64,000 nt of DNA from a bacterium (GTDB lineage: Bacteria; Patescibacteriota; Microgenomatia; UBA10105; UBA927): positions 11,750-75,749 of the forward strand of contig JAKAFY010000002.1 of NCBI GenBank assembly GCA_021817785.1, read 5' to 3'. The notes below the pieces were generated by a model. It worked only from the letters and a program-made list of their open reading frames with translations, was not told the origin of the DNA and searched no databases. Made by a program: the position numbers and the translations under genes. Shown in pieces: positions 47,439 to 62,771 of the stretch. Position 1 is the stretch's first letter; each line of letters begins with the position of its first letter.

Positions 47439-48341
47439 TTATGGACTGTGCCGTATGGCTTTACTTGAGACCGATTTGGTCTGACGTATGGTAATGGGGA
47501 TGCTCTGGATAATCTTTTTTTGTGCGGAGACTGCGTCTAATTTGTGTAGCAGCCCATCCATTGCCTCCGGAACGGCGCCGTACAGGATTTGTTTGATCTG
47601 GTCGTTGCTCAAACTCTGCCAGTTATGTACTTCTTTGATGAGTACCGGCTGCTGATACGGATCAGTTTGGAGGAAAACCCTCAGCGGAACACTGCCGTCA
47701 TACAGGCTGGTGCCGCCGTTCCAGATGGATATGCCGCCGGCAGTGGTGAGGATAGCCTGGGCTCCGTGGTTTTCGATGATTTTGTTGACGTCCTCCATCT
47801 CGTATGGCCGCATCTTGGCTGCTATCCGTACCAGCACGGTAGAAGGATGCGCATCCGGGTTTTTCATGTCAATGGCAGTGAGTCCGGTGCAGATTTCTAT
47901 GTTTTTACCGGAAAGAGCCATGGCGCCTTTTTCCCGATCCCGGAACCAGGACACCAAATCCCTGGGTTTTTCCAGTACGACGGACGTTTCATCCGAGGTG
48001 TCTCCTGCGTATGCAATACTTATCGTGTCCGAATACATCCTGAGGTGCCTGCCCTCGGTGGCGCTGCCGATTTCTTTGATAATATTTTGGCCGGCAAGTT
48101 CGTTGGTGGCGGCGATGACAAAAAGCGCACTGATGTCCTGGAAGGCTTTTTGTTTGGCCATTTCCATGGGCCATTCCGCCGGCTGAACATTGAGCGGCTG
48201 CTCCATGAGTTCTTCGGTAAATCCGGGTTTGACCTGCCGGACTTTCGTTTGGGGAAGCAGTAGTTCCCAGGAGTGGGTGCGCGCGGAGGAAGATGTGACG
48301 AAATCTACTTGACCGACGGTTTTAAATTGTTCTACTCCCAT
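47439..48341 (-). CDS. hypothetical protein
   Basis: 300-aa soluble protein with no confidently recognisable domain. Confidence 0.4.
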   Translation of the reverse strand: MGVEQFKTVGQVDFVTSSSARTHSWELLLPQTKVRQVKPGFTEELMEQPLNVQPAEWPMEMAKQKAFQDISALFVIAATNELAGQNIIKEIGSATEGRHLRMYSDTISIAYAGDTSDETSVVLEKPRDLVSWFRDREKGAMALSGKNIEICTGLTAIDMKNPDAHPSTVLVRIAAKMRPYEMEDVNKIIENHGAQAILTTAGGISIWNGGTSLYDGSVPLRVFLQTDPYQQPVLIKEVHNWQSLSNDQIKQILYGAVPEAMDGLLHKLDAVSAQKKIIQSIPITIRQTKSVSSKAIRHSP

Positions 48342-56615: not shown

Positions 56616-56645
56616 GGGGATATTGTAACACTCACATGTCCAGCT

Positions 56646-56894
56646 TTATTCAATAGCAGTACATCCATATTCACGCTTCTTCGTTCTGCGTCTTGCCTGA
56701 ATGCGTTCGAGTGCAAGTTCCAGACCAATGACAGACTGTTCCATATGATGTAATTCCTCTTTACTATAATCCTCCGGATGTGCGAGAGCTGCACGTAAAT
56801 TGCCTAGGCGCGTAATTGGGCTTTCTCGCGCCGCGTTTGCTTCCGCGTCTACGCGACAATGCCTAGCTTTTTTACAGTGTTCACAGAAAACCAT
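56646..56894 (-). CDS. small hypothetical protein with a CxxC-containing N-terminus
   Basis: 82 aa with FCEHCKKARHC. Confidence 0.25.
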   Translation of the reverse strand: MVFCEHCKKARHCRVDAEANAARESPITRLGNLRAALAHPEDYSKEELHHMEQSVIGLELALERIQARRRTKKREYGCTAIE

Positions 56895-57371
56895 AAGGGT
56901 GGGAGTATATCAAAAAAAGAGAGGAAATAAAGTTATAGGCTATAGTATACGTATATTTTGACTAGATATCCTCGGGCACTCTGTGTAGCGCCACCGACAT
57001 GGCGCGATACCTGTCCCATGCGGGGAGAGTAATACATTTGACTGCGATGTCATGCAGAAATAGGCAAAAGTTGGGAAAATGCGCTATACTACACCTTCAT
57101 TTTATATCCCTATGGAACGAAAAATACAACGGAACGGTAACGTGGAATACGTCGTGCAACCTGATGAAGTGAACCGTATGGAAGCGGCTAAAAAAGCCGG
57201 ATTGTGGTTCGTGTTTGCCGGGGGCAAAAAAGGAGGCGTACGACGCGTATGCTTTAACAAACGTAATCCTATAGATGTGGCTGCGGAATCGCTTTTTTGT
57301 TCAAACGCCGCTGATGCAAATGTTTTTCCGGAGTAGGGGCGTCACAATATGTTTTCTGCCCATGGTACTTA

Positions 57372-57944
57372 TTAGGCACGTATTGCGAGCTCTGTCATTT
57401 CCGATGATGCGAGCACCACCATAGTGCGTATGGCATCGGAAAATGGAAGCGTTCGGATCGGTCGGACCACAAGCATGGGGTGTTCCTCATGGGGCCTAAA
57501 TGGTACTTCTCGAGGATGGACGAGGGTCCAACAGTGAGCGGGATATTCTCCGTCGGGCGGGTCTTTGGATATATCAGCAATGAGTCCCGTGACTGAGTGC
57601 GCCCATGGGTAGGCAAGCGTGTGCATGTGGATTGCGGGGATATGTTTGGCATGGTGCCGGATAGGAATGATTTTATATTGTGCTCGTTCGGGATCGGCTA
57701 TGGCGAGCAGATCTACCGGAAGCTCTCCATTTGCCATAGCGCGGATCAATTTATCCGCTTCTGGTGAAGGCATGTTTCTTCGCCTGGCAGAAAAATTGAC
57801 GACCTGACATTCCAGTGTATCCAATAAATCTTTCCAGCTCAGAGCAATGTGTGTAGGTAGTTTTTGAATATGTTGGGCTCGTAAAGATTCAAATGTGGGC
57901 ATATAAGAAGGTTGCATCATACAGCGATGCATTTTTTCTGTCAA
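57372..57944 (-). CDS. hypothetical protein
   Basis: 190-aa His-rich ORF with no recognisable domain. Confidence 0.35.
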   Translation of the reverse strand: MTEKMHRCMMQPSYMPTFESLRAQHIQKLPTHIALSWKDLLDTLECQVVNFSARRRNMPSPEADKLIRAMANGELPVDLLAIADPERAQYKIIPIRHHAKHIPAIHMHTLAYPWAHSVTGLIADISKDPPDGEYPAHCWTLVHPREVPFRPHEEHPMLVVRPIRTLPFSDAIRTMVVLASSEMTELAIRA

Positions 57945-57976
57945 TATAAATCTGTGAGATAGATTACAAATTTGTT

Positions 57977-58357
57977 TTGATCGTCAGAATGAGCTATAGT
58001 ATGTCTTCTATGCGGAAAATGGGGATAGAATTTGAATTTGATCAGATACTCACCAACCAGCGTCCAACTGATGGGGAGCGCGATATGGCGCGTGCATTGC
58101 GCAATCCGAATAACCATATCGCGGCTCATCAGTCGTATGTGTTTACACACAGCGATGTTCATAAAACAGGGTCATATTATTTTGAGCAACCCCTCACTCC
58201 ACAACAAAGAAAAGAGTATGAGGATAAGGGATTTACGATAACGGATACGGGGTTTATTAAAGATGACGCACCCGTAGCCGCCGGCGTTATCCATAGACCT
58301 AGAGGCAAACAACGGATTGGGGTAAATAGAGGTCTTCCTGTTGATATCATAACCTAA
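57977..58357 (+). CDS. small paralog family protein A
   Basis: Shares the FDQILTNQ...DMARALR N-terminal motif with the two downstream ORFs. Confidence 0.4.
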   Translation: MIVRMSYSMSSMRKMGIEFEFDQILTNQRPTDGERDMARALRNPNNHIAAHQSYVFTHSDVHKTGSYYFEQPLTPQQRKEYEDKGFTITDTGFIKDDAPVAAGVIHRPRGKQRIGVNRGLPVDIIT

Positions 58358-58547
58358 CATCATAAATTTCCGCTTTTGAGACATATATATGGGTAGATGT
58401 TGCAGGGCCATGCCCTGCAAGGAGCTACCATCGACACCGTTCTGCGTCTGGCATGAATGTTCGTATAGCGAGATGTAAAGAAAAAGAAAGTACACCCGTG
58501 TGCCACCCGTTGATAATAGGCTTATAGTATGTTAAAATACGCGTTCT

Positions 58548-58889
58548 ATGCCACATAGATCCGAATCACTCTTTGACATGATCTTAACCGGTCAAGCGCC
58601 CCCCCCTCAGGTTGCAGACATGCAGTGTGCTGTTCGTCGTGGGAGTCTGAAAGGAGTATTTGCGCCATATGAACAGTATCGTAATAGGTTTGGCACAATT
58701 TTTATTTATGAAGATGTATTGCCGGAAGACAAGCGGAAAAATTTAGGATTAAGCCATGTCACACATCTCGAAGAAGGCGATGTGATAAAACGAACCAAAG
58801 GCGGGAACTGGGTATTGGATTCAGGGAGTATGGCAACATTTGGGAGAGGTACGGCAAATCACGCCAGGTTTATAAAGAAAAATAAGTAA
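58548..58889 (+). CDS. small paralog family protein B
   Basis: LFDMILTGQAPPPQVADMQCAVRRGSL shares the motif. Confidence 0.4.
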   Translation: MPHRSESLFDMILTGQAPPPQVADMQCAVRRGSLKGVFAPYEQYRNRFGTIFIYEDVLPEDKRKNLGLSHVTHLEEGDVIKRTKGGNWVLDSGSMATFGRGTANHARFIKKNK

Positions 58890-58893
58890 CGAT

Positions 58894-59286
58894 ATGAAAC
58901 GAATAGAAAACGGCCAGAGTATTGTTCGACCACGAAGGATTCGTGATGGAGTAGACATGTTTGATGCGATTTTGACCTATCAGGCATCGTTGCCACAGGT
59001 TCTCAGCATGGAGCGAGCGATACAACGAAGTGCGCTGTCGGGCGGACTTGCCGCGCATCATCATTTTATTGATGGGAAAGGACATCATTATTATTTTAAT
59101 TCGCTTTCTGCCGAAACGATGCGGACCAAAGGTCTTACAGAGATTGGGCCATATATCAACGTAGGGGATGTCTTTCCTGATCCGGGCGGATCAGGAAAAA
59201 TGTATAGGCACGTCGACAAAAAGATACCTGGCAGCGAAATGATCGGAAGGGGCGAGGGGCTTCGGGTAGTGGAAGTAACGGAATGA
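58894..59286 (+). CDS. small paralog family protein C
   Basis: MFDAILTYQASLPQVLSMERAIQRSAL shares the motif. It starts 5 bp after B. Confidence 0.4.
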   Translation: MKRIENGQSIVRPRRIRDGVDMFDAILTYQASLPQVLSMERAIQRSALSGGLAAHHHFIDGKGHHYYFNSLSAETMRTKGLTEIGPYINVGDVFPDPGGSGKMYRHVDKKIPGSEMIGRGEGLRVVEVTE

Positions 59287-59434
59287 GTATGTGACCTCCT
59301 TGTTCTTGCAGGTCATAGCCCCGCAAAAAAAAGCAAAAGAAATATAAAGCTAGAATGCTTTATGCAATCATAGAGTCCTTTTGACCGGATAGTAAAAAGA
59401 TCGTTTTGTTGGGTGTAGAAGATGTAGTGGTAAC

Positions 59435-59764
59435 GTGAAAGAGATACAAAATTTGTGTTTCTATATAAAAAATTTACGTACGTTGATTATGTCCAGAAAA
59501 GGCGTCGAGAAATTTATAGGGCATATGGTTACTCGTAGACTAATTAGGCATTATGTCCTGATGGGGAACGTCACTGGTGCACTTAGATTGTATGATCTCG
59601 ATGAAACAGATCGGCAAAATATAAATCGCGCGGTGCATACTCAGCACGACTTGTTGATAACATATGCATTATCAGAGCAGCGCATGCATGAGAGCGAGGT
59701 ATTGGGAAACATAGCATCGAGTTTACAAGGGTATATGGAGTCGCGGTATCCCCGAAAAGAATAG
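59435..59764 (+). CDS. hypothetical protein
   Basis: 109-aa ORF with no recognisable domain. Confidence 0.3.
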   Translation: MKEIQNLCFYIKNLRTLIMSRKGVEKFIGHMVTRRLIRHYVLMGNVTGALRLYDLDETDRQNINRAVHTQHDLLITYALSEQRMHESEVLGNIASSLQGYMESRYPRKE

Positions 59765-59768
59765 CGAG

Positions 59769-60419
59769 TTACACAATAATTTTCAGCTGGCGGAGGATGG
59801 GGAGTAATACTTCAAACGGCAGGCCGATGACGTTGGTGTAGGAGCCATCAATTTTGGTGACTAAATCCCACGGCGTTTCGTTTAGGGCGTAGCCCGCTGC
59901 AAAGCGCGTAAAGTCGTAGTGGGTCACATAACTTTCGAGTTCCGGGCCGGTCAACTTCCTGAGTGTTACTTTGGTTTCCACGGTCTTCGTCCAGGTCTTT
60001 TTTAACTTCCCCATGGCGATATGGGAGATGACGACACACGTCGTAAACGTATGGGTTTTGCCCATGAGATCCTTCAAGATCCGGATGGCGTCATCGCGGT
60101 CTACGGCTTTGCCGTAGCTTTTTTTGCCCACGATCGCTTCAGAGTCCGCCGTGATGACCACCACATCCCGATCTTCCGGGATCATGTAGACTCTCGGATT
60201 GTTGACGATTTCCGTATTTTTGGCCGCGGCCCGTTTTTGGATCATTTTAGCAGGGTTCGGATCCGTGATTTTGTCTTCATCCAGGCGGGTGACAGCCACG
60301 CGGAAACGAATGGCTAGCTTTTCCAAGAGGCTTCTCCGGCCGATGGACTGGGAGGCGAGCACGACATCGGGCGCTAATGGTTCTTCTTCCTGATTTTTGG
60401 AGGCGAAAGATAATTTCAT
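59769..60419 (-). CDS. maf: Maf-like nucleoside triphosphate pyrophosphatase
   Basis: VVLASQSIGRRSLLEKL matches the Maf S-x-S-P-R-R region and VIGLPFEVL matches the C-terminal GLP motif. The true start is probably an internal codon. Confidence 0.7.
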   Translation of the reverse strand: MKLSFASKNQEEEPLAPDVVLASQSIGRRSLLEKLAIRFRVAVTRLDEDKITDPNPAKMIQKRAAAKNTEIVNNPRVYMIPEDRDVVVITADSEAIVGKKSYGKAVDRDDAIRILKDLMGKTHTFTTCVVISHIAMGKLKKTWTKTVETKVTLRKLTGPELESYVTHYDFTRFAAGYALNETPWDLVTKIDGSYTNVIGLPFEVLLPILRQLKIIV

Positions 60420-60782
60420 TATGCCGTAGTATAGCGTATTTTGGAGAATTTTGCGAGGAGGGGATTATGTAGGCCACTGCAACGGTCGGCCTCTCCCATT
60501 TTGTTCTGTGACTAATTTTTGAAATTTAGCTTCTCGTCGAGTTCGAAATATTTTGTTGGCTTTTTCGCCCGTAAAATTTTTAGCGAGTTCCGCAGCATCA
60601 TCTCCTGCGGCCTGTCGGAGTGAAAAATCATCACCCTTTATTTCAACCGTTTTACTATGTATGGATACATACATATTTGTATTATACCCCACAATACAAG
60701 CGGTGTGCCGCTATGGGGCTTGATTGACTCGTTAGCGAATCGATGCATATCGATGAGTGTACGTCATCAATCCTAGCGCTTT

Positions 60783-60850
60783 GTGCCCCTAGAGGGAATT
60801 GAACCCCCATCTTGCCCTTAGGACGGGCCTGCTCTCCGCCTGCCATAGCC
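60783..60850 (-). pseudogene. tRNA-Arg-like partial copy (anticodon arm plus T arm only; no foldable 5' half)
   Basis: The minus-strand sequence GGCCCGTCCTAAGGGCAAGATGGGGGTTCAATTCCCTCTAGGGGCAC is about 80% identical to the 3' two-thirds of the adjacent tRNA-Arg. The 23 nt upstream cannot form an acceptor or D stem. Confidence 0.35.
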
Positions 60851-60852
60851 TG

Positions 60853-60924
60853 TGCCCTTGGGGGGAATCGAACCCTCATCTCACCCTTAGGACGGGTTTG
60901 CTCTATCCATTGAGCTACAAAGGC
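60853..60924 (-). tRNA. tRNA-Arg (anticodon CCT), no encoded CCA
   Basis: Manual fold. Acceptor stem GCCTTTG/CAAGGGC (one G-U pair), D arm GCTC-AATGGATA-GAGC, anticodon stem with loop GTCCTAA (U33, CCT, A37), T arm GAGGG-TTCGATT-CCCCC, discriminator A. Confidence 0.75.
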
Positions 60925-60976
60925 GCCCAGGTATTATAGCATCATAAACCACACGGTTGACACCCGTGATGTCTGG

Positions 60977-61384
60977 GTGCATAATCAATTCATGTATTCT
61001 ACGCATCAAAAGGGTGTGTATGGTGAATTAGCATTTACGCTCCGGCTTATCGAAAAAGGATATTCTGTCTTGCACCCGGTCAATCCGAATTCCAGTTATG
61101 ACCTTGTCGTAGAAAAGGATGGTGTTTTTCAACGAATACAGGTAAAATACCTTACATCGCGACATGGAGTAGTCCGTATAGAGCTTGATCGTCCGAAACG
61201 GAAGACCGCTTCATATCGTGATCGCAAGATTGATGCGATAGGGGTGTATGAATCGACAGGGAAAAAATGCTATCTGATTCCTATCGCGTCTATACAAGTG
61301 AAATCTGATTATTGGTTGCGGACGGATAATCCAAAAAATAATCAATATAAAGGGATTCATTTGGCGACGGAGTTTGAATTGTAG
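60977..61384 (+). CDS. Hjc/YraN-like PD-(D/E)xK nuclease-fold protein
   Basis: KGVYGELAFTLRLIEKGYSVLHPVNPNSSYDLVVEKDGVFQRIQVKY matches the G-x-x-x-E ... D-L-V ... I/V-x-V-K core of Hjc/UPF0102. It is 135 aa and its stop abuts the tRNA-Pro start. Confidence 0.5.
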   Translation: MHNQFMYSTHQKGVYGELAFTLRLIEKGYSVLHPVNPNSSYDLVVEKDGVFQRIQVKYLTSRHGVVRIELDRPKRKTASYRDRKIDAIGVYESTGKKCYLIPIASIQVKSDYWLRTDNPKNNQYKGIHLATEFEL

Positions 61385-61460
61385 CGGGGTGTGGCTCAGT
61401 TGGTAGAGCGCTTCGTTCGGGACGAAGAGGTCGTGAGTTCAAGTCTCACCACCCCGACCA
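61385..61460 (+). tRNA. tRNA-Pro (anticodon CGG) with encoded CCA
   Basis: Manual fold. Acceptor stem CGGGGTG/CACCCCG is fully paired. U8, D arm GCTC-AGTTGGTA-GAGC, anticodon stem CTTCG/CGAAG with loop TTCGGGA (U33, CGG, G37), T arm GTGAG-TTCAAGT-CTCAC, discriminator A, then CCA. Confidence 0.85.
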
Positions 61461-61469
61461 TAATAAAGG

Positions 61470-62771
61470 TTACTTTAAATTCACCACATAGAGGTTGTTG
61501 ACTTCGGAGGCCGATGAATTGAGGTTGGTTAAAATCACGAGTTTCCCGCCGCTGGCCCAGGGCACGGCGAAACTATCCCAAAACGGGCCGGCGTAGGCCG
61601 TACGCACATTTGCCCCGTCGTAATCCATGATCTGTACTTTATCTTTGACCACATATACCAGATGCCGTGAGGTAGGCAGCCAGCGCAGTATGGTGCTGAC
61701 GTCGACAACGGGCGTTGGTGTCGGAAGTGTGCCTTTCCGTACCGGTGTGGGAATCGGGGCGACGGGAAACTGCGCCGCATTTAACACCAGGTAATTCCTA
61801 TCTTCTTTGATGTCGTAGACGTAGAGATTGTTCGGTTTGATCGTGCGGGTTTCTTCCGTAGGATCGGTGCCGATAATCGGCGGGGTGATGATTTGGGGAA
61901 GGGTTGCGCTTGCGGTGGCTTCATACAGAATCTTTGTTTCGTCCGGGGACAGGGCGATGATGGTAGCAGACGTCGATGCCACATCGGTAAACGCGGGAGG
62001 GATGGTAACCAACTGTTCTTTGGTCCGCTGATCTTTGAGCGTTTGCCAATCAGTTTGAACTGTTTTGATATTGATAAGCGTAAGATTGGGATTGAGTTTG
62101 TCGGTATCCAAAAGGTAACCGAGTGGTGCGGACAGGCCGGTCTGTGTCGGCGGAGTGGCGAGTATCTGCTTGCTGTCCGGAGACCAGTGCAGCGCGGCCT
62201 TGCTGAAGTCTGTGCCGTTACTCTGGGCAATCTGCCGGGCATCGCGGTTTAATCCCAGTGGTTTGTCTACCAGGTCTAATACCCATATGCCGGGTCGGGT
62301 AGGAGAAAGCGTACCGGAAATGGTGGCCTGCGGCTGGTCCGGGACGACGTAGGCAAGCTTGCTGCCGTCGGGAGAGAGTATCGGCGATACCACTCCGCTG
62401 ACGGTAAGGGCAGTCAGAGACGGATTGACGGGTAAAAGTAGTGCATCGATTTTTGTGACCACTTCTCCCTGGACTTTGACCCGTTTTTTCCAGGGCTGGA
62501 ATCCTTCTTTGGCTATAGTGACGTTGTACCAGCCGGGAGCGAGAGTGAGGGTGGCCTGTGTGGCCGTGGTAATTTTGTCATCCACGATGATCTGGGCGCC
62601 TGACGGATCGGACTGCGCGACGACCAGCCCTGTGGCATTGAGTTCCCGGTCGCCGAAATTAAACCGGTAGCCGCGCCCATAGGAAATAATCGCGGCAGCC
62701 GTGCCGAATATGATACATACCGTAACGAAAGATATCAGAAATGATCGGATATTTGAAAACATACGGAACAC
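61470..62771 (-). CDS. membrane-anchored PEGA-domain plus PD40/TolB-like beta-propeller protein
   Basis: N-terminal TM anchor, a PEGA-like region (LAPGWYNVTIAKEGFQPWKKRVKV), and repeated WSPDSKQIL/LSPDGSKLAY/LSPDETKILY PD40-type blades. Confidence 0.6.
   Translation of the reverse strand: MFRMFSNIRSFLISFVTVCIIFGTAAAIISYGRGYRFNFGDRELNATGLVVAQSDPSGAQIIVDDKITTATQATLTLAPGWYNVTIAKEGFQPWKKRVKVQGEVVTKIDALLLPVNPSLTALTVSGVVSPILSPDGSKLAYVVPDQPQATISGTLSPTRPGIWVLDLVDKPLGLNRDARQIAQSNGTDFSKAALHWSPDSKQILATPPTQTGLSAPLGYLLDTDKLNPNLTLINIKTVQTDWQTLKDQRTKEQLVTIPPAFTDVASTSATIIALSPDETKILYEATASATLPQIITPPIIGTDPTEETRTIKPNNLYVYDIKEDRNYLVLNAAQFPVAPIPTPVRKGTLPTPTPVVDVSTILRWLPTSRHLVYVVKDKVQIMDYDGANVRTAYAGPFWDSFAVPWASGGKLVILTNLNSSASEVNNLYVVNLK

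Follow-up and report, generated by a model that had tools for sequence, protein, structure and literature searches.

What left a partial tRNA-Arg gene beside an intact one, and what a nuclease gene is doing between them and a tRNA-Pro gene, are the questions raised by a locus of a Gottesmanbacteria-like bacterium (GenBank assembly GCA_021817785.1, contig JAKAFY010000002.1, positions 11,750 to 75,749 of the forward strand). The whole 64,000-nt stretch is called the window, and coordinates refer to it. The original prediction had read the arrangement either as a past integration or excision event at the tRNA-Arg 3' end, the partial copy resembling an integrase scar, or as a selfish nuclease gene housed among clustered tRNA genes. 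The locus is interpreted here as a free-standing homing cassette, with the partial copy as the stump of a displaced resident tRNA-Arg allele and the repair of a nuclease-made break as the likeliest cause. This interpretation draws on sequence comparison and structure modelling, and we give it a probability of about 0.6. Its main elements are:

60783 to 60835, minus strand: Psi1 (the stump), tRNA positions 21-73, read as what remains of allele a, the resident tRNA-Arg(CCT).
60836 to 60851, minus strand: filler of 16 nt (AGGCTATGGCAGGCGG on the minus strand), which links the stump to the working tRNA-Arg.
60852 to 60924, minus strand: working tRNA-Arg(CCT), allele b, without encoded CCA (ARAGORN, Rfam).
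60992 to 61384, plus strand: gene of a predicted 130-aa PD-(D/E)xK nuclease, Pfam PF11645 (I-Ssp6803I family).
61385 to 61460, plus strand: tRNA-Pro(CGG), CCA encoded, its first base right after the nuclease stop codon (ARAGORN, Rfam).

A second, partial tRNA-Arg copy adjoining the 3' end of tRNA-Arg was confirmed, as 53 nt of clear homology plus the 16-nt filler. The repeat alignment matched 60782-60835 with 60851-60904 (54 nt, 83% identity). The clear homology (60783-60835) covered the 3' strand of the D stem, the anticodon arm, the T arm, the 3' strand of the acceptor and the discriminator; in the 16 nt between the working gene and the stump (60836-60851), neither an acceptor nor a D arm could be recognised. 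By chance, the copy's 3' end (24 nt) and its anticodon-arm core (13 nt) would each be expected to match 0.00-0.06 times in the window. ARAGORN called two tRNA genes in the 64 kb, tRNA-Arg(CCT) and tRNA-Pro(CGG), which scored 56 and 70 bits, respectively, with the Rfam tRNA model. The partial copy (60783-60851) received no ARAGORN call and no Rfam tRNA match was listed for it at E ≤ 10, in agreement with the predicted lack of a foldable acceptor and D stem. Its sole Rfam match was that of the T arm to the tmRNA model (11.4 bits), and a clade-specific tRNA model, built for tRNA-Pro and not for tRNA-Arg, gave it 11.4 bits. It is highly improbable that the copy works as a non-canonical tRNA or as a tRNA-like RNA, such as one without a D arm. 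Its anticodon and T arms were complete and differed little from those of a working gene, and the transcript of tRNA-Arg probably includes it as a 3' trailer, with a terminator-like hairpin following downstream, all of which would suit such an RNA. Against it, besides the silence of ARAGORN and Rfam, the best acceptor-like register in the 5' 16 nt paired at 5/7 positions by eye (two G-T pairs), the D stem was broken, and the arrangement was absent from all relatives sampled, so that there was neither conservation nor covariation.

The stump was then compared with the tRNA-Arg genes of related loci (L-numbers are labels of the compared loci, and WIN denotes the window). It was identical at 52/53 positions to the working tRNA-Arg of L040 and at 50/53 to that of L042, against 44/53 for the adjacent working copy, where the longest identical run was 13 nt. 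Among relatives whose tRNA-Arg region was available, L040 was the closest, at 82% identity in the nuclease and 84% in the neighbouring PEGA-domain gene (PEGA). Synonymous differences between WIN and L040 reached a proportion of 0.66 (dS about 1.6), which is near saturation, and a neutral relic dating from the split would not have stayed 98% identical. The stump therefore either turned into a relic only a short time ago or stayed under constraint until recent times. Positions 60705-60773 of the window were homologous to the sequence downstream of the L040 tRNA-Arg (73% over 71 nt), and the stump therefore occupies the site orthologous to that of the resident tRNA-Arg gene. The working gene, allele b, was identical at 72/73 positions to the tRNA-Arg of the nuclease-free locus L043 and at only 63/73 to that of L040. 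L043 and the window were 73-74% identical in their flanks and matched at just 56/73 positions in tRNA-Pro. Allele b differed from the resident allele in the 5' half too (acceptor pairs 5:68 and 7:66). The simplest reading of these comparisons is that the stump represents the 3' part of the lineage's original tRNA-Arg, a recently displaced resident allele, and not an integrase attachment-site (att) scar.

A simple tandem duplication followed by decay of one copy was rejected, because the supposed pseudogene was 98% identical to the working gene of a relative, with synonymous sites near saturation, and the working copy was the divergent one. An old tandem duplication of tRNA-Arg(CCT), b followed by a, with differential loss among lineages, recent truncation of a and no involvement of the nuclease, is a more elaborate version that we consider unlikely. 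Long selection on both copies would explain the 98% identity of the stump to the L040 gene; the L020 allele resembled an a/b mosaic, as from gene conversion between tandem copies; and tandem tRNA-Arg genes do exist in L036 (CCT then CCG). However, no other of about 30 loci had a tandem tRNA-Arg(CCT) pair, and L040, L041, L042 and L043 were single-copy, so several independent clean losses would be needed (L039 was uninformative on copy number, its contig starting inside its tRNA-Arg). The near identity of allele b to its L043 counterpart, set against the much lower identity of the two tRNA-Pro genes, argues for a recent transfer.

The outer parts of the block bear on the integrase explanation and on rearrangement:

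60699 to 60712, minus strand: terminator-like hairpin AGCGGCACACCGCT with a T-rich run, left edge of the inverted block.
60705 to 60719, minus strand: Psi2, an old 15-nt relic of a tRNA-Arg 3' end (plus strand GTGCCGCTATGGGGC).
60720 to 60782, minus strand: spacer between Psi2 and Psi1.
61461 to 61469, no strand assigned: right junction of the inverted block.

Psi2 was common to the window, L040 and L042, and L043 had a visibly similar motif (unscored). It predates the events discussed here, because L042, a site without the nuclease, carries it. The integration of a phage or island at the tRNA-Arg 3' end, with the partial copy as a displaced attR or attL half, is very improbable. The remnant was the 3' portion of a tRNA, like att duplications, and the 14-24-nt relics of tRNA 3' ends found 60-110 nt downstream of tRNA-Arg (L006, L023, L040 and Psi2 of the window) resembled att cores of the T-loop type. 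Nevertheless, there was no island, with 16 nt only between the intact gene and the remnant, and no integrase occurred among the open reading frames (ORFs) scanned from 47.4 to 62.8 kb. The other half of the supposed att duplication, which the original prediction had proposed to look for, did not turn up: the 3' end and the anticodon core had no further copy in the 64 kb. The intact gene was another allele throughout, and a crossover inside the tRNA cannot produce a difference in the 5' half. Fragments of 5' ends, which integrases do not leave, were present in L017 and L033.

In L033 (positions 19-38), a distant relative whose nuclease was 55% identical to that of the window, the trailer of an inserted tRNA-Arg had GCTnTGGCAGGCGG in common with the filler (13/14). 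Exact matches to the 10-mer of the filler were confined to the window's own strain and to L033, where the relative position was the same, apart from a single occurrence elsewhere in L007 that was put down to chance. A source of the filler at 57722-57740 was discarded, its similarity (16/19) being at chance level.

Separate assemblies behind five records, L001-L005 (four from ENA samples, one an NCBI metagenome-assembled genome, MAG), gave the identical arrangement, and an assembly artefact was dismissed for that reason. A chimera of two co-occurring strains with alleles a and b is barely conceivable: the sequence came from a MAG and both alleles occur in related lineages, but the junctions were identical in all five records, the unique 16-nt filler included.

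The nuclease matched Pfam PF11645 (PDDEXK_5) with 91.9 bits (E 4.6e-26; cut-off 26.1), over profile positions 2-136 of 138. Its only sequence match in the PDB by phmmer was 2OST, I-Ssp6803I (E 1.6e-5), to which it was 22% identical. An AlphaFold (AF2) model with a mean confidence (pLDDT) of 84 had 2OST_A as its best structural match (TM-score 0.79, E 1e-8), followed by Hjc resolvases (TM-score 0.42-0.53). The description of the protein as Hjc/YraN-like thus stood at the level of the fold and not at that of the family; no Pfam Hjc or YraN match was obtained at E ≤ 0.1. Residues D37, Q50 and K52 were invariant in 23 homologues and aligned with YDL...QVK of I-Ssp6803I. The ratio of nonsynonymous to synonymous substitution rates (dN/dS) was 0.04-0.23 in the pairs where it was estimable, which indicates purifying selection and a protein kept functional. 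The start codon was ATG 60992, giving 130 aa as in all homologues; the mechanical ORF list had used GTG 60977, and the predicted length of 135 aa was corrected accordingly. The other part of that claim held, the stop codon TAG (61382-61384) abutting base 1 of tRNA-Pro. The encoding of CCA by tRNA-Pro and not by tRNA-Arg was likewise seen in the sequence.

An intron-encoded nuclease was rejected. No group I intron was found in window positions 60300-61700 (Rfam, E ≤ 10, with tRNA as the only family) or in 20 related loci, and there is no room for a ribozyme, since the ORF had 67 nt upstream and 0 nt downstream. The nuclease is accordingly classed, from its sequence and modelled fold, as a predicted free-standing member of the I-Ssp6803I homing-endonuclease family.

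The relatives were Gottesmanbacteria, Roizmanbacteria and other Microgenomates MAGs. In all of about 27 distinct loci the nuclease was followed by tRNA-Pro(CGG) on the same strand, with a gap of 0 nt in 8 and of at most about 48 nt. tRNA-Arg(CCT) was usually near the nuclease in varying position and orientation, and was absent in the most distant contexts. In L036 (2642-2883) the nuclease was followed by three tandem tRNAs, tRNA-Pro(CGG), tRNA-Arg(CCT) and tRNA-Arg(CCG). Homologues of the nuclease formed 26 clusters, against more than 1300 for PEGA (E ≤ 1e-30), of which at least 120 were at least 49% identical.

Three loci, L042, L043 and L044, were empty sites, with divergent tRNA-Arg(CCT) and tRNA-Pro(CGG) genes 47-54 nt apart, PEGA and Maf flanking, and no trace of the nuclease. 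Their PEGA orthologues were 67-77% identical to that of the window, as close as those of several filled loci, and at least 15 filled loci lay in the same PEGA-Maf frame. The intergenic sequence CTCTATTCTAyC...TGsTACAATACCAAC was common to the three empty sites and unrelated to the filled intergenic sequence, which defines two allele classes bounded by the 5' ends of both tRNAs. In L020 (2501-2888; Gottesmanbacteria nzgw408, 1.2-Mb contig) the nuclease was split over three frames by two frameshifts, and this copy is probably a pseudogene, as a cycle of invasion and decay would be expected to leave. Empty, filled and frameshifted alleles interleaved in the PEGA tree, the pattern of a homing-endonuclease gene and not of a core gene. 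The comparison of synteny with relatives, which the original prediction had suggested, thereby bore out its idea of a selfish nuclease resident in a tRNA cluster: a gene of the I-Ssp6803I family was present, absent or pseudogenised at the same site. The window tRNA-Pro was identical at 73/73 positions to that of L020 and at only 62-64/73 to those of its closest relatives L039 and L040.

A domesticated nuclease, with a host role in repair or linked to the tRNA locus and co-transcribed with tRNA-Pro, the stump and the rearrangements being unrelated accidents, would account for the strong purifying selection, for a nuclease tree that largely followed the host trees (PEGA, Maf), and for the occurrence of the gene as one copy, at the same conserved site, in Gottesmanbacteria and in genomes of the Roizmanbacteria type. 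We consider it quite unlikely, because close relatives manage without the nuclease at three empty sites, one copy is frameshifted, and nuclease clusters are few beside those of PEGA. The family is moreover known as a homing endonuclease with a patchy distribution resembling that of horizontal gene transfer (PMC3424549), and its phage homologues, described below, lie in tRNA clusters like free-standing homing genes.

The divergent promoter region between tRNA-Arg and the nuclease contained:

60933 to 60938, minus strand: TATAAT, a putative -10 box 8 nt upstream of tRNA-Arg, conserved in filled loci.
60952 to 60968, no strand assigned: pseudo-palindrome CACGG-TTGACAC-CCGTG, with 5-bp arms and a 7-nt centre with the -35 box, conserved.
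60957 to 60985, plus strand: sigma-70-type promoter TTGACA-17-CATAAT (11/12).

The -10 box of the nuclease promoter ended 6 nt before the ATG, and this spacing was conserved in relatives; the nuclease mRNA is for that reason probably leaderless and would run straight into tRNA-Pro. The promoter was the sole promoter-like site upstream of tRNA-Pro. Expression of tRNA-Pro would now depend on it, since the mRNA continues into the tRNA.

The arms of the palindrome covaried across lineages (CTCGG/CCGAG, TTCAG/CTGAA, CCCGG/CCGGG), with 90% of cells paired and 8 double changes against 2.7 in shuffles, a level reached in 0 of 500 shuffles. The geometry of the palindrome was that of an anticodon arm. 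In L017, the left arm was the end of a tRNA-Pro 5' half, with a 43-nt spacing to the ATG as in L015. The arms of the window clade, CACGG/CCGTG, were equal to the anticodon stem of tRNA-Pro in L042 and L043, both empty alleles, whereas the working tRNA-Pro of filled alleles (the window clade and most others) had stems of the CTTCG/CGAAG type, with L015, L016 and L036 as exceptions. A covariance model run upstream of the nuclease detected no palindromes, and its only matches were the fragment in L017 (10.4 bits) and the stump of the window (11.4 bits); the idea of a tRNA-Pro relic rests for that reason on the positional homology in L017 and on the arm sequences. The palindrome may be a relic of the anticodon arm of a disrupted tRNA-Pro, an autoregulatory operator, or both.

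On these grounds a 'tRNA-gene drive' can be proposed as a tentative extension, possible rather than probable. The nuclease would recognise the pseudo-palindromic anticodon-arm DNA of tRNA-Pro(CGG), like I-Ssp6803I with tRNA-fMet, but without the shelter of an intron; it would have disrupted the resident tRNA-Pro and would have brought an immune replacement downstream. The anticodon arm of the disrupted gene would persist as the covarying palindrome, now a -35 box and perhaps an autoregulatory operator, and repeated breaks would push tRNA allele replacement, stumps and cassette inversions in reduced genomes. The proposal fits in that the arms are the stems of empty alleles and the filled stems differ, apart from the three exceptions above, and in that the 5' half in L017 ends in the left arm.

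Traces of recombination recurred around the cassette. L017 had its native promoter, tRNA-Pro positions 1-32, 33-34 nt, the nuclease and then a complete tRNA-Pro of another allele. In L033, a complete tRNA-Arg with short flanks sat in the anticodon loop of an older tRNA-Arg. L006 contained a 17-nt relic of an L041-type allele, its own tRNA-Arg being of a very different type. Further 3' relics occurred in L023, L029/30 and L041, with weaker ones in L011 and L040; at the three empty sites only the old Psi2 relic was seen. The tRNA alleles were mosaic across lineages and shuffled relative to the flanking genes: the near or full identities of the window tRNA-Pro to L020, its tRNA-Arg to L043 and its stump to L040 stood against flanks at 73-80% identity.

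The block from Psi2 to tRNA-Pro (about 60700-61463) was inverted relative to Maf and PEGA in comparison with the closest relatives. Left of the hairpin, 60672-60699 matched, in reversed orientation, the flank that relatives have on the Maf side. At the right junction the homology of the cassette stopped at about 61463, and the PEGA-gene flank began at 61468-61470, also in opposite orientation to the closest relatives. Orientation was compared across the window, L039, L040, L020, L006, L010, L007, L015 and L016, and the inversion had three independent origins (the window, the L007 group and the L015 group), each sister to a lineage of the other orientation. With its stumps, shuffled tRNA alleles and three inversions, the locus qualifies as a recombination hot spot. 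That the nuclease causes this recombination is plausible.

A module of about 460 nt (tRNA-Arg promoter, palindrome bearing the -35 box and nuclease gene) fills the space between the divergent tRNA-Arg and tRNA-Pro genes, a space that in nuclease-free relatives is the unrelated 47-54-nt promoter region. Under the homing interpretation, allele b and 16 nt of its trailer would recently have been copied in, replacing positions 1-20 of the resident allele a. A double-strand break inside the tRNA gene, near position 20/21, would have been followed by strand invasion through the nearly identical 5' 20 nt and by synthesis through b, so that one end was resolved by homology, and the other end would have been closed by illegitimate end joining. 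The nuclease would be the most plausible source of the break, given that its relatives target tRNA genes and that scars, swaps and inversions recur around the cassette.

Several points weigh against this interpretation. Stumps and allele mosaics could be general to the tRNA genes of bacteria of the candidate phyla radiation (CPR). The anticodon arms of tRNA-Arg and tRNA-Pro are dissimilar, and it is not obvious how one enzyme would cut both. The congruence of the trees and the dN/dS values fit long residence or domestication as well as ongoing homing. No donor with both allele b and the 16-nt filler was found, the L043 trailer being different. The sample of empty sites was n = 3, and every compared sequence was a metagenome assembly.

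Some features of the neighbourhood stood apart from the cassette. In the window, about 3.1 kb (56616-59768) separated Maf from a conserved 286-aa gene, the two being about 30-300 nt apart in L006, L039 and L042. The small ORFs of this interval had no Pfam or PHROG function. Two of them (58548-58889 and 58894-59286) were paralogous at 33% identity, and a short N-terminal stretch was shared by a third (57977-58357; 48% over 25 aa, E 0.003). At 57064-57092 the sequence upstream of Maf recurred in inverted form over 29 nt. The true Maf gene and a second, weak Maf-like ORF of 300 aa (47439-48341; Pfam Maf E 0.0014, below threshold) were about 12 kb apart. A 75-aa ORF (60465-60692), situated between Maf and the tRNA block, had no Pfam or PHROG match and no tblastn match in related loci, and may not be a gene.

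Homologues of the nuclease in GenBank phages were 25-38% identical and lay in or near tRNA clusters in 4/5 contexts checked (among them L045, L046, L047 and L049). In the cyanophage (Synechococcus phage) Sf-FR1 (L045), the ORF was between tRNA-Arg(TCT) and tRNA-Val(TAC), overlapping the latter. In Salmonella phage SM5 (L047), the two flanking tRNAs were labelled Met in the record and were read by ARAGORN as Asn and Tyr. No relatives of the nuclease were found among IMG/VR viral contigs.

To our knowledge, a single characterised enzyme, encoded within a tRNA intron of a cyanobacterium, supplies nearly all that is known of PD-(D/E)xK homing endonucleases. Free-standing homing endonucleases in tRNA clusters are already a known kind; new here is a predicted free-standing, chromosomal, tRNA-fused branch of the I-Ssp6803I family in ultrasmall CPR bacteria. 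If the nuclease causes the scars, then in minimal genomes the set of tRNA genes, the identity of their alleles and the order of nearby genes would be shaped by selfish nucleases. The natural empty and filled alleles together with the candidate recognition palindrome offer a ready test system, and the approximately 27 variants, each paired with its covarying palindrome, could be mined for rules of DNA recognition.

The characterised enzyme, I-Ssp6803I (PDB 2OST), comes from the group I intron of tRNA-fMet in Synechocystis and shares with the present nuclease PF11645, the catalytic motif, a similar size and the tie to a tRNA gene. It binds a 23-bp pseudo-palindrome as a tetramer (PMC3384342). 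It recognises the pseudo-palindromic anticodon region of its own tRNA gene; in the present locus a pseudo-palindrome of anticodon-arm geometry lies in the nuclease promoter. Unlike I-Ssp6803I, the nuclease here was outside an intron, 5' of an intact tRNA-Pro(CGG) and not inside tRNA-fMet, and in a CPR host and not in a cyanobacterium.

SegB and other free-standing endonucleases of T4-like phages are likewise nuclease genes among tRNA genes. SegB has been described as a GIY-YIG enzyme and is phage-encoded. It is statistically tied to tRNA genes and drives segmental duplication of a tRNA region (PMC13096335), and intronless homing with co-conversion of flanks is the proposed mode (PMC3984707). 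Partial tRNA duplications and allele replacements flanked the nuclease gene of the present locus. Unlike SegB, the enzyme here was of the PD-(D/E)xK type, encoded in a bacterial chromosome and, as far as sequence tells, transcriptionally fused to a tRNA.

The att duplications left by integrases also comprise a 3' tRNA fragment beside an intact tRNA, and short relics of 3' ends occurred further downstream here as well. They differed from the present locus in that no integrase, island or att partner was found, the intact gene was another allele, and 5' fragments were present in relatives. With nucleases of the Hjc/YraN type, the PD-(D/E)xK fold was shared, I-Ssp6803I itself superposing on Hjc at 2.4 Å (PMC3384342); both the sequence match and the best structural match of the nuclease went to the homing endonuclease.

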